64,000 nucleotides of DNA, from contig JAEELI010000007.1 in NCBI GenBank assembly GCA_016288795.1, positions 5,142-69,141 of the forward strand, read 5' to 3'. Under the pieces are notes generated by a model that did not search any database, was not told the DNA's origin, and saw only the letters and a list, made by a program, of their open reading frames with translations. Position numbers and translations under genes: made by a program. This stretch comes from Bacillales bacterium. Lineage in GTDB: Bacteria > Bacillota_I > Bacilli_A > RF39 > UBA660. This document shows, one piece after another, positions 46,568 through 50,949 of the stretch (within the stretch, counting starts at the first letter, position 1; the number at the start of each line of letters is the position of its first letter).

Positions 46568-47338
46568 ATGGATAAGTTAAATGATTTATTACAAGAATTA
46601 GGGGTTTCAAAAGTAAGACTTTCAAAGTATTTAGGAGTATCTAGACAAATGGTATATAACTATTTGATGCTAGAAAGTCTAGATAAATGGCCTAAGGAAA
46701 AGAAAATATTATTACTTCAACTTTTAGACTTAAAAGAGGGTAGTAAAGAAGAGTTGGAGAGTATTAAAGTAGACACTGAATACTTAATGAATGTAGAAAA
46801 AAGATTAAATTTAGGAATGAAAAATGGTAATGAATTAGATTCTTTCCTTGATTTAAAAGGCTTAGATAAAGAAAGCAAAACATTACTAAATGATATTGCA
46901 TTTTTATTAAAAGAAAAGTTAGAAGAGAATAGAAATAATGATACAATTGCAATTAAATATTTATATAACTTTTTACAAGCAATGGATAATGTTCCAGAAA
47001 TCAAGTATATATTAGCATATATGGCTAAGACAAATGGTTTTATTACTGCTGATCAATTTGATTTCAATGAAGATAAACAATATGTATTTGAAGGTATTTT
47101 ATTCTCAGCGCTTACTCTTTATAACAATGGTGGCGCAAGCAAGAGTAAAGTAGTGGAAACTAGAAAAAGATTTGTTCAAGAGCTTGAAGCTAAGAAAGAA
47201 GAGAAGTTGAGTAGAACACAACAATTAAACACTACTAAGATACAAGCACTAAAAGAACTTGGTTATACCGAAATAAATGAATCAAATGCTGCCGAGGTTT
47301 TTGAAAAGATAGCTGAGATTCAATCAAGAAAAGTTTAA
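46568..47338 (+). CDS. Helix-turn-helix domain protein (XRE-like N-terminus)
   Basis: LLQELGVSKVRLSKYLGVSRQMVYNY is an HTH motif. Confidence 0.55.
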   Translation: MDKLNDLLQELGVSKVRLSKYLGVSRQMVYNYLMLESLDKWPKEKKILLLQLLDLKEGSKEELESIKVDTEYLMNVEKRLNLGMKNGNELDSFLDLKGLDKESKTLLNDIAFLLKEKLEENRNNDTIAIKYLYNFLQAMDNVPEIKYILAYMAKTNGFITADQFDFNEDKQYVFEGILFSALTLYNNGGASKSKVVETRKRFVQELEAKKEEKLSRTQQLNTTKIQALKELGYTEINESNAAEVFEKIAEIQSRKV

Positions 47339-47398
47339 AAAAAGATAGAGAACTACTCTCTTTTTTTTTGCTTTAAAACTCACTCCTACACATGTATA

Positions 47399-47477
47399 TA
47401 TCCTTATATAAATATAAATAATAGGATTACATGCGCATAATCCTTATATTAATATAAATTATAAGGATATAATGCGC
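47399..47477. repeat. Tandem pair of ~40-bp units, each containing an internal palindrome
   Basis: Unit 1 is atccttatataaatataaataataggat + tacATGCGCATa. Unit 2 is atccttatattaatataaattataaggat + ataATGCGCttg. Unit 2 has perfect 9-bp arms (ATCCTTATA/TATAAGGAT) with an 11-nt spacer. It lies between convergent genes. Confidence 0.6.
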
Positions 47478-47666
47478 TTGAATTTTTTTATAAAGTATTC
47501 GCAAATTTTTTTCTCAATTTATTTTGCACTAAATATTTTAATTTTAATATATTATTATTATAAATAAATATAATTCATTATTATTAAACTAACCCAAAAT
47601 TAATCAAGTCTGTGTTTTTCATAATGTATATTATGTTAACCAACGCTTGAGTTGCAATTTCTGATA

Positions 47667-47692
47667 ATAAAAAAGGACTAGTTTTCTAGTCC
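47667..47692 (-). terminator. clpB rho-independent terminator
   Basis: On the minus strand, AGGACTAGaaaaCTAGTCCTttttt. It overlaps the clpB stop codon. Confidence 0.7.
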
Positions 47693-49806
47693 TCTACGTC
47701 TATCCTATTATCTTTAACTATAACTTTAATTGAATCTCCATATTTAATTGTTCCATCAATTATTTTCTTGGCTAATAATGTTTCTAATTCCTTTGTAACC
47801 AATCTTTTTAATGGTCTAGCTCCATAGGCTTCATCATAACCATTATCAATAAAATATCTAATAGCATCTTCACTTAATTCTAATTTAATATTTATATCTT
47901 TTAAATTATCTTCTATATTATGAATAATTTTAAATAAAATATCCTTTAGAACTTCTTTATTTAATTTATTAAACATTATAATTTCATCAATTCTATTTAA
48001 AAACTCTGGTTTAAAATAATGATGTAATTCTTCCATAACTTTTTTTGATTCTCCATCTAGTATATATTCGCTTCCTACATTAGATGTCATTATAATGATT
48101 GTATTCTTAAAGTCCACTACTCTACCATTTGAATCTGTAAGTCTTCCGTCATCTAATATTTGTAATAATAAATTTAATACTTCTGGATGCGCTTTTTCAA
48201 TTTCATCAAATAGCACAATACTATATGGATTTCTACGAACTGCTTCAGTTAGTTGTCCACCCTCTTCATAACCTATATATCCTGGTGCAGCTCCAATCAA
48301 TCTAGAAACAGAGTATTTTTCCATATATTCACTCATATCAATTCTAATTAAGTGGTGCTCATCGTCAAATAATTCATACGCTAAACTCTTAGCTATTTCT
48401 GTTTTACCAACACCAGTAGGTCCTAGGAATATAAATGAGCCAATTGGTCTATTTGGATCTTTTATACCACTTCTACTACGAATAATAGCATCACTAACTA
48501 ATTTTAATGCATTATCTTGGCCCATAACTCTTTTTCTCAAATTATCTTCTAAGTGTAATAATTTTTCTTTTTCAGTGCTCAATAGTTTTGTAATAGGTAT
48601 ATTCGTTAACTTACTTATTACATCTGCTATATTATCACTTGTTACAGTATCACTTAATAATTTGTTGCTTGAATTTTGCTTCAAATCATTTAATTCTTTT
48701 TCCAATTTGGGAATTGTTCCGTGACGTAATTTGGCAGCATTTTCTAAATCATAGTTGTTCTCTGCTGTTTCCAATTCGTATCTTGCTTTTTCTAATTCTT
48801 CTTTTTTGCTATTAATTTCACTTAATGTTTCCTTTTCGTTTTCCCAAGCAATCTTCAATTCTTTTTCTTCTTTTTTAAGCGATGTAAGTTCTTCTTCTAT
48901 CGCTTCTTTTCTTTTAATAGATAACTCATCTTTTTCTTTTTTGATTGCTTCTTTTTCGATTTCTAAACGCATAATTGAACGAGTAAGCTCATCTAAAGAA
49001 GTCGGCACACTATCCATTTGAACTCTAATTGTTGCACATGCTTCATCTACTAAATCGATTGCTTTATCTGGTAAATATCTATCTGTAATATACCTATTTG
49101 ATAGAACTGCTGCACTAACTAGTGCCTTATCTTGAATAGTAACTCCATGGTGTATTTCAAATCTTTCTTTTAATCCTCTTAGAATAGTTATTGTGTCCTC
49201 AACAGAAGGCTCAGATATTTTAACCTTTTGAAATCTTCTCTCTAAAGCTCCATCTTTTTCAATATATTTACGATATTCATTTAGAGTAGTAGCTCCAATA
49301 ACGTGCACTTCTCCTCTAGCTAGCATTGGTTTAAGTATATTACCAGCATCCATTGCACCTTCAATTGCTCCAGCTCCCACTATCATGTGAATTTCATCAA
49401 TAAACATTATAATTGAACCATTGCTTTTTCTAATTTCATTAAGAACCTTTTCTAATCTTTCCTCAAATTCACCACGATACTTAGCTCCAGCTATCAAAGA
49501 TGCCATATCTAGTTCCCAAATCACTTTATTCTTTAAACTTTCTGGAACATCACCTTTAATAATCCTTTGAGCTAAACCTTCAACGATGGCAGTTTTACCT
49601 ACACCAGGCTCACCAATCAATACCGGATTGTTTTTAGTCTTTCTAGTTAGAATTCTTGTAATGCTTCTAATTTCTTCGTCCCTACCAATTATTGGATCAG
49701 TCTTTCTGTTTGAAACTGCTTCATTGATGTTTCTTCCATATTTTTCTAAAACATTTTCTTCTTCGTTATTTTGATTAAAATTCATATCAATCAACCAACC
49801 TTTCAT
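47686..49806 (-). CDS. clpB: ATP-dependent chaperone ClpB lacking the N-terminal domain
   Basis: Two AAA+ modules (GEPGVGKT and GPTGVGKT Walker A motifs) with an M-domain coiled coil between them. At 706 aa it is missing the ~150-aa N-domain. The start may be the second ATG at 49785. Confidence 0.9.
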
Positions 49807-49825
49807 ATAATATTATACTCAACAA

Positions 49826-49852
49826 TTAGCACTTGTCAACTATAAGTGCTAA
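49826..49852. promoter_or_regulatory. CIRCE (HrcA operator) upstream of clpB
   Basis: TTAGCACTT-N9-AAGTGCTAA is a perfect inverted repeat matching the CIRCE consensus. It lies ~20 nt upstream of the clpB start. Confidence 0.7.
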
Positions 49853-50051: not shown

Positions 50052-50077
50052 AAGAAGATATTTTATAATATCTTCTT
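50052..50077. terminator. Bidirectional hairpin terminator
   Basis: AAGAAGATATtttataATATCTTCTT with T-rich flanks. It serves the small ORF (+) and the xer gene (-). Confidence 0.65.
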
Positions 50078-50949
50078 TATTTATTGTAATGCGGATGCTT
50101 TTTATAGTCTTCCTTAACCTTTTCATGGGATACATGAGAATATATTTCTGTAGTTGATATGTTTTCGTGGCCTAATAGCTCCTGAATAATCCTTAAATCA
50201 GCACCATTATTTAACAAATGAGTTGCAAACGAATGTCTTAAAATATGGGGAGATATTTCTTTATCTATTCCACTCTTTTCGCATATTTGCTTAAGTATTT
50301 TAAAGAAACCCTGACGAGACATTCTCTTGCCATTATAATTGACAAATAAATAGTCTGAAACTCTATCTTTTAATATATAATTTCTATATTCATTAATATA
50401 CATATTAAGGTAGGTAATGCAAATACCAGATATAGGAATAATTCTTTCTTTACTTCCCTTCCCCATTACCTTTACTGATTCATCTATTATATTTATATTT
50501 GCCAAGTTTAAATCTAATAACTCGGATATTCTCATCCCAGTTGCATATAGTAATTCCAGCATTGCTTTGTTACGATAATCAAGTGGCTCTTTTAGAGATA
50601 TATCAAGAAGTTTATCTACTTCATCCATAGTTAAAAACTTAGGTAATTTTTTAGGCATTTTAGGAGCCTTAATATTATCGCAAGGATTAACTTTTATTAA
50701 TTCTAAATCTAGCATATAATCGTAAAATGATTTTAAAACAGTTAAGTAATGTGCTTTAGAAGAAGCACTTTCTTCACATTTATAAAGAAATTCTCTAATA
50801 TTATCATCACTTAATTTTAATAAATTTTCCCCTTTAAAGTAATTAGATACCTTTTCTAAATTATATTTGTATGATTCATAAGTATTATTTGATAATTTTC
50901 TTTCATATTTTAAATAGTTTAGATAGTTTTTTATATTATCATCTTTCAT
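50077..50949 (-). CDS. Tyrosine recombinase XerC/XerD family
   Basis: C-terminal catalytic motifs HILRHSFATHLL...LGHENISTTEIYSHV and an N-terminal core-binding domain. It sits in a housekeeping context next to rarA. Confidence 0.8.
   Translation of the reverse strand: MKDDNIKNYLNYLKYERKLSNNTYESYKYNLEKVSNYFKGENLLKLSDDNIREFLYKCEESASSKAHYLTVLKSFYDYMLDLELIKVNPCDNIKAPKMPKKLPKFLTMDEVDKLLDISLKEPLDYRNKAMLELLYATGMRISELLDLNLANINIIDESVKVMGKGSKERIIPISGICITYLNMYINEYRNYILKDRVSDYLFVNYNGKRMSRQGFFKILKQICEKSGIDKEISPHILRHSFATHLLNNGADLRIIQELLGHENISTTEIYSHVSHEKVKEDYKKHPHYNK

Follow-up and report, generated by a model that had tools for sequence, protein, structure and literature searches.

The window analysed here is a 64-kb stretch (64,000 nucleotides) of contig JAEELI010000007.1 from a Bacillales bacterium, and its positions serve as coordinates throughout. 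Within it we focused on a gap between two convergent genes that holds a pair of tandem palindromic units and, further to the right, a predicted dif site for chromosome dimer resolution. To the left of the gap ends a gene on the + strand (46568-47338) for a 256-amino-acid (aa) protein with an N-terminal helix-turn-helix (HTH), the last gene of the left replichore; to the right ends clpB on the − strand (47686-49806), which encodes an N-terminally short ClpB-type ATPase of 706 aa. Just upstream of clpB is a CIRCE operator (controlling inverted repeat of chaperone expression), TTAGCACTTGTCAACTATAAGTGCTAA, with two mismatches (49826-49852), and beyond it, 2.4 kb from dif, lies the gene for an XerD-like tyrosine recombinase on the − strand (50077-50949). 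The recombinase scores 328.5 bits against the XerD model TIGR02225, whose cut-off is 329.6, and no second Xer-like open reading frame (ORF) was found in the window. These landmarks agree with a first-pass annotation made from the sequence alone, which had recognised the gap between two 3′ ends with the xer recombinase and the clpB CIRCE nearby; it had overlooked the terminus context and dif.

Before 48 kb, GC skew stays positive, between about +0.13 and +0.29, and it is negative thereafter; on average it is about +0.2 to the left and about −0.2 to the right of 47-48 kb; the cumulative G−C curve has its maximum at 47350 and the cumulative T−A curve its minimum at 47352. The skew plateau (47155-47690) includes dif, and the origin lies outside the window. 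Among ORFs of at least 150 aa, 35 of 39 to the left of the gap lie on the + strand and 11 of 13 to its right on the − strand. Because GC skew, AT skew and gene orientation all flip there, the gap between the HTH gene and clpB is the replication terminus, the meeting point of the two replichores. The HTH gene is followed on the + strand by an intrinsic terminator, AAAAAGATAGAGAACTACTCTCTTTTTTTTT (47339-47369), a stem-loop with a T-run in the RNA fold that has equivalents ahead of the palindromes of relatives; clpB ends in an intrinsic terminator on the − strand (47672-47695). The clpB terminator alone was reported by a terminator scan of the gap, and the HTH terminator is a separate upstream hairpin; they form the right and left edges, respectively, of a predicted untranscribed zone that holds the palindromes and dif.

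The first-pass annotation had correctly described two tandem units of about 40 bp, with coordinates one base too low. Unit 1 (atccttatataaatataaataataggat followed by tacatgcgcata) occupies 47400-47439 and unit 2 directly adjoins it at 47440-47479, each being 40 bp long. Each unit consists of an A+T-rich inverted repeat, ATCCTTATA...TAWAGGAT, and then a stretch that contains G+C: TACATGCGCATA for unit 1, ATAATGCGCTT for unit 2. Tandem Repeats Finder reported them with a period of 40, 1.9 copies, 87% matches and a score of 119, the highest of 102 rows for the window. The core of unit 1, palindrome 1 (ATCCTTATA-N10-AATAGGAT; 47400-47427), is imperfect in that its right arm is one A short. Palindrome 2, the core of unit 2 and proximal to dif (ATCCTTATA-N11-TATAAGGAT; 47440-47468), has the perfect 9-bp arms (47440-48 and 47460-68) and the 11-nt centre that had been noted before, and its centre lies 173.5 bp from that of dif. 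Three stretches border the palindromes: a purine-pyrimidine (RY) box, TACACATGTATATAT, without strand (RY box 1; 47387-47401); a second such box, TACATGCGCATA, between both palindromes (RY box 2; 47428-47439), whose counterpart in relatives is ATATACGCGTAT; and ATAATGCGC, the right flank of palindrome 2 in the DNA fold (47469-47477). The short palindromes that the annotation had placed between and upstream of the units are both present, ATGCGCAT at 47431-38 and ACATGT at 47390-95. From 47478 to 47613, an A+T-rich spacer with only two low-complexity ORFs (25 and 31 aa) separates the units from dif.

In the DNA fold, CATGTA (47391-96) can pair with TACATG (47427-32) to form an outer arm around palindrome 1, and GCGCAT (47433-38) with ATGCGC (47472-77) to form one around palindrome 2. 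As single-stranded DNA, the 101-nt region folds better than all of 200 shuffles (z = −3.4). The palindrome pattern does not stand out within the window by itself: with up to three mismatches allowed, it also finds a match in 36 of 100 shuffled windows, so the window alone cannot prove that the palindromes are significant. No second copy of the palindrome was found in the window. That the palindromes are more than chance follows from their conservation in relatives, described below.

The predicted dif site lies at 47614-47641 on the + strand and reads GTTTTTCATAA-TGTATA-TTATGTTAACC (XerC arm, centre and XerD arm). We compared it with the reference dif sequences of Escherichia coli and Bacillus subtilis and with the inner-palindrome criterion for dif (PMC3025954). 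The site has the 11-6-11 geometry over 28 bp; its inner positions 7-12 (CATAAT) and 17-22 (ATTATG) are complementary at 6 of 6 places; it agrees with E. coli dif, GGTGCGCATAATGTATATTATGTTAAAT, at 22 of 28 positions, including an unbroken run of 20, and with that of B. subtilis at 19 of 28; and its core is unique in the window. Judged by these features, 47614-47641 is a canonical chromosome dimer-resolution site.

For comparison, related terminus loci were collected: 13 via four homologues of the HTH protein and 80 species-representative loci via a genome scan (exact look-up of the HTH and ClpB proteins of the window returned no contig, and homologues were used to retrieve loci). The relatives are uncultured gut bacteria, represented by metagenome-assembled genomes (MAGs) labelled Bacilli, Tenericutes or Mycoplasma and including Clostridium sp. 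CAG:609 and Candidatus Onthocola (Bacilli incertae sedis), a clade that we take to be the order RF39. An exact 20-nt dif pattern was unmatched in the first loci owing to single-base differences, and scans allowing mismatches recovered the site. With up to four mismatches, a dif-like core occurs once each in 72 of the 94 sequences, always in the orientation of the HTH gene, always at the flip in gene orientation and between 40 bp and 5 kb past the HTH stop codon; in several species the distance is only 40-70 bp. The HTH gene is syntenic with dif in these 72 loci, standing last or almost last among the genes of the left replichore. The dif of one relative, ACTTCCTATAATATATATTATGTTAACC (locus L085), matches that of B. 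subtilis at 25 of 28 positions. In relatives, conservation continues for about 15 bp past the XerD arm (AACCAA-NN-CTT-NN-GAAA); the window retains CCAACGCTTGA there and then diverges (47642-47660). This stretch might represent a longer contact for XerD, or a different site.

To ask where the palindromes occur, we built a profile from 17 strict palindromes and used it in an nhmmer search of the 93 loci and the window (1.17 Mb). There were 89 matches in 51 of the 72 dif-bearing sequences (two in 36 sequences, one in 14 and three in 1), and every one of the 89 stands left of dif, 150-300 bp from its centre. In the window, the profile matches palindrome 2 (47440-47470, E = 0.01) and palindrome 1 (47397-47423, E = 0.9); an imperfect distal palindrome like palindrome 1 was also seen by eye in relatives. 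Only three other matches were found in the 1.17 Mb, in L054, where dif is disrupted, and in L090, where the contig ends; no intact dif could be called in either. Several further loci have degenerate palindromes, recognised by eye. Also by eye, the order of elements in relatives is the terminator of the upstream gene, an RY box, palindrome 1, the RY box ATATACGCGTAT, palindrome 2, 140-200 bp of A+T-rich DNA, and dif. The linkage to dif is kept where one to four genes stand between the HTH gene and the palindromes (L044, L045, L047, L048, L050, L081 and L091) and also in the window, where the usual 265-285-aa neighbour downstream of the HTH gene is missing. Because the linkage survives the insertion or loss of genes beside the HTH gene, the palindromes follow dif and not a gene.

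An independent scan of metagenome contigs by the palindrome alone (TATAACCTTAT-N7-13-ATAAGGTTATA) gave 30 matches. About 14 of these have a G+C content of at most 0.29, of which 12-13 have a dif 164-272 bp away, on either side, and 11 of the low-G+C contigs contain the HTH gene; the matches of higher G+C content look like chance. In L227, L233, L238 and L244 (HTH proteins 55-60% identical), the order is HTH gene, dif, spacer and palindromes, so that the palindromes stand on the XerD-arm side, whereas in L218 and L245 (57% identical) they stand on the XerC-arm side. Overall, the palindromes are on the XerC side in 54 loci and on the XerD side in those four. Across 57 non-duplicate loci, the centres of palindrome and dif are 167-269 bp apart (median about 186), with nothing ever inserted between them. 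Together, these results show that the palindromes are conserved and, in the sequences examined, are found next to dif only. The strong conservation in related genomes that the first-pass annotation had called for was thus observed.

The surroundings of the palindromes and dif are less constant: the terminus neighbourhood varies on both sides and never in between. Compared with close relatives, the window is without the 265-285-aa gene after the HTH gene (47339 vs L001:5788-8246) and without the gene for a ZIP-family transporter, the usual right neighbour of dif in close relatives. We considered the 265-285-aa gene as a cis requirement and rejected it. It is missing from the window, L046 and L086, which all have palindromes, and a check of six palindrome-bearing metagenome loci revealed no homologue; since the palindromes persist where the gene is missing, it is not required in cis. 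Upstream of the palindromes, a CCCCTAC...GTAGGGG hairpin recurs in relatives (L044, L046, L048, L050, L070, L091 and others); often followed by a T-run, it ends the last gene of the left replichore, whichever gene that is, and has an unusually conserved G+C stem. These CCCCTAC...GTAGGG boxes were also considered as a pseudo-dif; by eye they look like the stems of the upstream gene's terminator, a hairpin with a T-run.

About 13 dif-bearing species do without palindromes. Seven species have the HTH gene and dif and no palindromes (L064, L068, L071, L082, L085, L087 and L089). Their dif comes straight after the terminator of the HTH gene, and its XerC arm is of the canonical kind (ACTTCGCATAA, ACTTCCTATAA). 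Degenerate, A-rich XerC arms such as TTCAAAAATAA are found in many species with palindromes. This correlation is informal and imperfect, with L084, L086 and the L227 group as exceptions.

The sequences were then examined for what is conserved in the palindromes. The consensus of the half-site is TATAWCCTTATT, and a palindrome has the form TATAWCCTTATT-N-AATAAGGWTATA and is about 33-35 bp long, with one to three copies per locus. The CCTTAT and ATAAGG motifs are near-invariant, even across lineages whose HTH proteins are only 55-60% identical. The A+T centre between them measures 11 bp (15 cases) or 12 bp (18 cases), rarely 10 or 13 (a looser definition of the arms gives 26 and 21 cases, respectively). 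There was no compensatory covariation in the arms: the W position forms 24 complementary pairs where 18.7 are expected, and at the other variable arm positions mirrored complementarity is at or below expectation. Since mirrored complementarity is not above expectation, the symmetry is that of a repeated recognition sequence of the operator type, not of a maintained helix. Alternating RY runs that are 8 nt or longer and include three or more G/C are present in 39 of 48 modules, compared with 81 of 1151 A+T-rich control windows, and in most relatives the RY box lies on one side of the palindrome only. In 46 relatives, the spacer from the end of the proximal palindrome to dif measures 137-202 bp (median 156), has 15% G+C, cannot be aligned and is never interrupted. 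Its A/T tracts show an autocorrelation at about 10.5 bp that was reached by none of 500 control sets and none of 300 shuffles.

Two observations indicate that dif itself is a target of integration in this clade. Compared with its sister contig L214, L215 (the same contig as L002) has an extra 5.5 kb that starts directly after dif (L215:11964-17540) and contains a G2P-type rolling-circle Rep (5.7e-16), a Zot-type ATPase (7.7e-7) and a dozen small ORFs. The insertion ends in a second dif-like site, TTTTCTATAATGTTATCATTATGTAAACC, after which the same right flank, AACCAAGACYTCAGAAA, follows. It is a predicted filamentous prophage with the signature of integration by Xer recombination, and since a sister strain carries this prophage at dif, it supports the view that dif in this clade is active as a recombination target. 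The prophage Rep shares 55% identity with its counterpart in Bajarodino virus 42 (Inoviridae), from rodent faeces and with no known host, a resemblance which suggests that these faecal inoviruses infect this lineage of Bacilli and integrate by Xer recombination; no recognisable dif-like arm was found in Bajarodino virus 42, the closest phage relative of this Rep. In L054 (3000-3040), the XerC arm and centre, TTTTGCATAATGTATA, give way to unrelated sequence in place of the XerD arm, and the upstream palindromes are intact. This junction is probably the left end of another element integrated at dif.

These data firmly establish that the two units are the palindromic part, variable in copy number from one to three, of a conserved cis-module of about 280 bp that ends in dif and lies at the replication terminus. 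The first-pass annotation had suggested, among other readings, a protein-binding array such as a partition, replication-fork or Xer-like site. The array and the tie to Xer are borne out to the extent that conserved half-site palindromes are linked to dif, the target of Xer; the units themselves are not an Xer site, dif being about 174 bp away. Because the half-site is conserved, the module most likely works through sequence-specific binding of a protein to the palindromes. We further propose, tentatively, that this protein cooperates with XerCD at dif and that the palindromes serve as its accessory module; the spacer, which is bounded, never interrupted and bend-prone, and the occurrence of the palindromes on either side of dif argue for such cooperation. 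In the proposed mechanism, a dimeric or tetrameric sequence-specific DNA-binding protein, for which the HTH protein, to which the first-pass annotation had pointed, and an Xer protein are candidates, would occupy the palindromes. The complex would form a nucleoprotein structure that acts with XerC/XerD at dif across the bendable spacer, and as an accessory or architectural element it would help to pair or orient sister dif sites, or time Xer recombination.

The chromosomal dif of model bacteria is governed by FtsK and chromosome polarity, and to our knowledge it needs no accessory DNA. A bolder proposal, which we consider possible and rather doubtful, is that dimer resolution or the final processing of the terminus in this order-level lineage is run by a dedicated accessory module bound by a lineage-specific protein, possibly the HTH protein, which supplements or replaces activation of the FtsK type. 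Such a module would comprise tandem TATAWCCTTATT palindromes with an ACGCGT-type box and a bendable spacer of about 150 bp, as a chromosomal counterpart of the control exerted at the plasmid sites cer and psi. Literature searches returned no conserved palindromic element flanking a chromosomal dif and no dif in these lineages; the literature does describe dif in many phyla, plasmid accessory sequences, XerD and its XDS sites, matS, and integrative mobile elements exploiting Xer (IMEX). As the dif of model bacteria is a bare 28-bp site and accessory DNA is typical of plasmid Xer sites, a conserved and position-locked module would point to an extra layer of terminus control, which could concern dimer resolution, decatenation, fork fusion or terminus anchoring, in a large uncultured gut lineage with reduced genomes. 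The palindrome also provides a concrete DNA target for finding its protein and a precise marker of the terminus and dif in these MAGs, and small filamentous phages known only from faecal viromes appear to integrate at this dif.

For the HTH protein there are over 6000 homologues, every one of them either without a name or annotated as hypothetical. In Pfam its HTH matches were all sub-threshold, and NCBIfam, PHROGs and a sequence search of the Protein Data Bank (PDB) gave nothing. Its AlphaFold model has a mean pLDDT of 58, with residues 1-85 near 80, and a Foldseek search against the PDB returned no match below E = 2. There was also no detectable similarity to the replication terminator protein (RTP) or Tus.

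Several points weigh against cooperation with XerCD at dif. The HTH protein is a possible binder that comes without an informative family, structural or PDB match. Helical phasing of the distance between palindrome and dif was not detected across the 57 loci (Rayleigh p > 0.6), which speaks against rigid, face-specific contact. In cer and psi, the accessory sequences are fixed on the XerC-arm side of the core, whereas the side of the module relative to the XerC arm is not fixed. The seven species that have the HTH gene and dif do without palindromes, so these are dispensable in some lineages. Furthermore, the bounded distance could be due in part to the confinement of both elements to a single short gap at the 3′ ends of convergent genes, and the lags at which the spacer periodicity was scored were chosen after inspecting the data. 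Finally, because the related loci were all drawn from the terminus neighbourhood, the absence of copies elsewhere in the genomes rests mainly on the exact-consensus scan of metagenomes.

The main rival, which we nevertheless regard as unlikely, is a replication fork barrier, in which a terminator protein, perhaps the HTH protein, would bind the palindromes and arrest forks beside dif. The module does lie exactly where skew and gene orientation switch, and tandem repeats of about 40 bp next to a conserved gene of DNA-binding type recall rtp with TerI-II and tus with TerB. The symmetry of the sites, however, rules out polarity, and they are grouped together instead of standing opposed on the two flanks of the terminus. 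The HTH gene is also present where the palindromes are absent, and its product showed no similarity to RTP or Tus. A barrier alone would leave unexplained both the bounded distance to dif on either side and the uninterrupted spacer.

We consider it less likely still that the module acts as structure-forming DNA, with the palindromes as cruciforms and the RY boxes as Z-DNA, providing a supercoil sink or a site for gyrase or topoisomerase (Topo) IV in decatenation. The two extended hairpins with G+C clamps in the window, the enrichment of RY boxes and a spacer of curved-type A+T DNA of roughly the length of a gyrase wrap would fit such a role, and E. coli Topo IV acts preferentially at dif. Covariation that would keep the pairing is absent, however, and conservation extends to the very sequence of the half-site, for which a purely structural element would have no need; moreover, the RY box cannot act as a stem clamp, because it is one-sided in most relatives.

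It is very unlikely that the palindromes are a second recombination core, similar to lox or FRT, with arms of about 13 bp and a centre of 7-9 bp bound by the XerD-like enzyme. Their total length of 33-35 bp and symmetric 11-13-bp arms are compatible with this, as are the resemblance of the arm ATCCT(T)ATA to the canonical Firmicute XerC arm TTCCTATAA with one indel and a copy number of one to three, which unequal exchange would be expected to produce. Yet the likeness to the XerC arm needs that indel, the near-symmetric centres of A+T only would give no directionality, and no prophage or island junction was found at the palindromes, compared with two at dif. Degenerate copies of dif were a related candidate that we rejected. 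A likeness to the E. coli XerC arm is seen in the junction ATGCGCATAA, and CGCTTGAATT (47475-47484) after unit 2 and CGCTTGAGTT (47644-47653) after dif stand at similar offsets from the preceding arm; neither feature recurs in relatives, and the resemblance of CGCTTGAATT to CGCTTGAGTT is probably due to chance. A telomere-resolvase target, which the RY centre recalls by its likeness to the centres of tel sites, was rejected because dif implies a circular chromosome; the module is also not a perfect long palindrome, and unique genes flank it on both sides.

We give a similarly small chance to a relic, either a decaying IMEX remnant, left by a mobile element that had integrated at dif, or a functionless neutral duplication. 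The dif of this clade is demonstrably used by integrating elements and the palindromes are absent from some lineages, both in keeping with such an origin. Against it, the half-site is conserved across HTH identities of 55-100% while the adjoining spacer has diverged beyond alignment, and there is no second pseudo-dif beyond the palindromes. A scan of viral contigs (AACCTTAT-N6-14-ATAAGGTT) gave at least 120 matches, with no dif-like site nearby among the matches listed; as these look like chance, there is no sign of a phage origin.

An RNA element, such as the small RNA suggested by the first-pass annotation or hairpins of a 3′ untranslated region, has a slimmer chance again. The region folds well as RNA (z = −5.5), partly owing to the terminator. 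It nevertheless sits downstream of the HTH terminator and beyond that of clpB, and promoter-like matches in it are no more frequent than in shuffles. Rfam gave no match at the gathering score (the sole match at E ≤ 1 was a spurious small nucleolar RNA, E = 0.72), and the arms, as described above, do not covary. No conserved ORF was found in the module, and the units lack the features of intrinsic terminators, having A+T stems and no T-run. Finally, a generic repetitive extragenic palindromic (REP) or miniature inverted-repeat transposable element (MITE) can be all but dismissed: the palindromic units do lie between convergent genes, yet there is one locus in the 64-kb window, the scattered copies that the annotation itself had proposed as a refuting test appear neither in the 1.17 Mb of related DNA nor among the metagenome matches, and the low-G+C metagenome matches are almost all linked to dif.

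Cooperation of a palindrome-bound protein with XerCD thus remains the reading that we favour, and the module can be set beside known systems. The palindromes are like loxP and FRT (about 34 bp, with two inverted 13-bp arms and a short centre) in size and geometry; unlike these, they have a symmetric A+T centre and show no sign of recombination. REP elements and bacterial interspersed mosaic elements (BIMEs) are likewise palindromic units between convergent genes, present in hundreds of copies, whereas the module is single-locus and dif-linked. With RTP-TerI/TerII and Tus-Ter (sites of 30-47 bp) it shares repeated sites at the terminus beside a gene of DNA-binding type, the terminator genes adjoining their sites in B. 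subtilis (rtp and TerI-II) and E. coli (tus and TerB). Ter sites lack symmetry, are polar and stand in opposed groups. Those of the module, by contrast, are symmetric direct-tandem copies, gathered in a single cluster at a bounded distance from dif. The matS (MatP) and XDS (XerD) sites are short terminus sites that organise the terminus and unload SMC (structural maintenance of chromosomes) complexes (PMC11894783). The module is like them in consisting of short specific sites in the terminus region; unlike them, as they are spread over hundreds of kilobases, it is a single cluster beside dif and of unrelated sequence.

The closest comparison is with cer (ColE1) and psi (pSC101), in which a 30-bp core is accompanied by about 180 bp bound by ArgR or ArcA and PepA (PMC5357621). 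There, a palindromic regulator site and wrappable DNA build the synaptic complex that controls XerCD (PMC5357621; bioRxiv 10.64898/2026.02.23.706985). In our sequence, no ARG box was found in 47339-47685 and window-wide matches were at chance level; ArcA and PepA sites were not searched for. Membership of the cer/psi family fails because the module is chromosomal, is without an ARG box and is not fixed to one side, and its core, unlike theirs, is the canonical 28-bp dif with a 6-bp centre. The module may therefore be called only loosely analogous to the cer and psi accessory sequences, an analogy that lies in cis-DNA on the scale of 150-200 bp that flanks an Xer core and combines palindromes with a curved-type A+T spacer.

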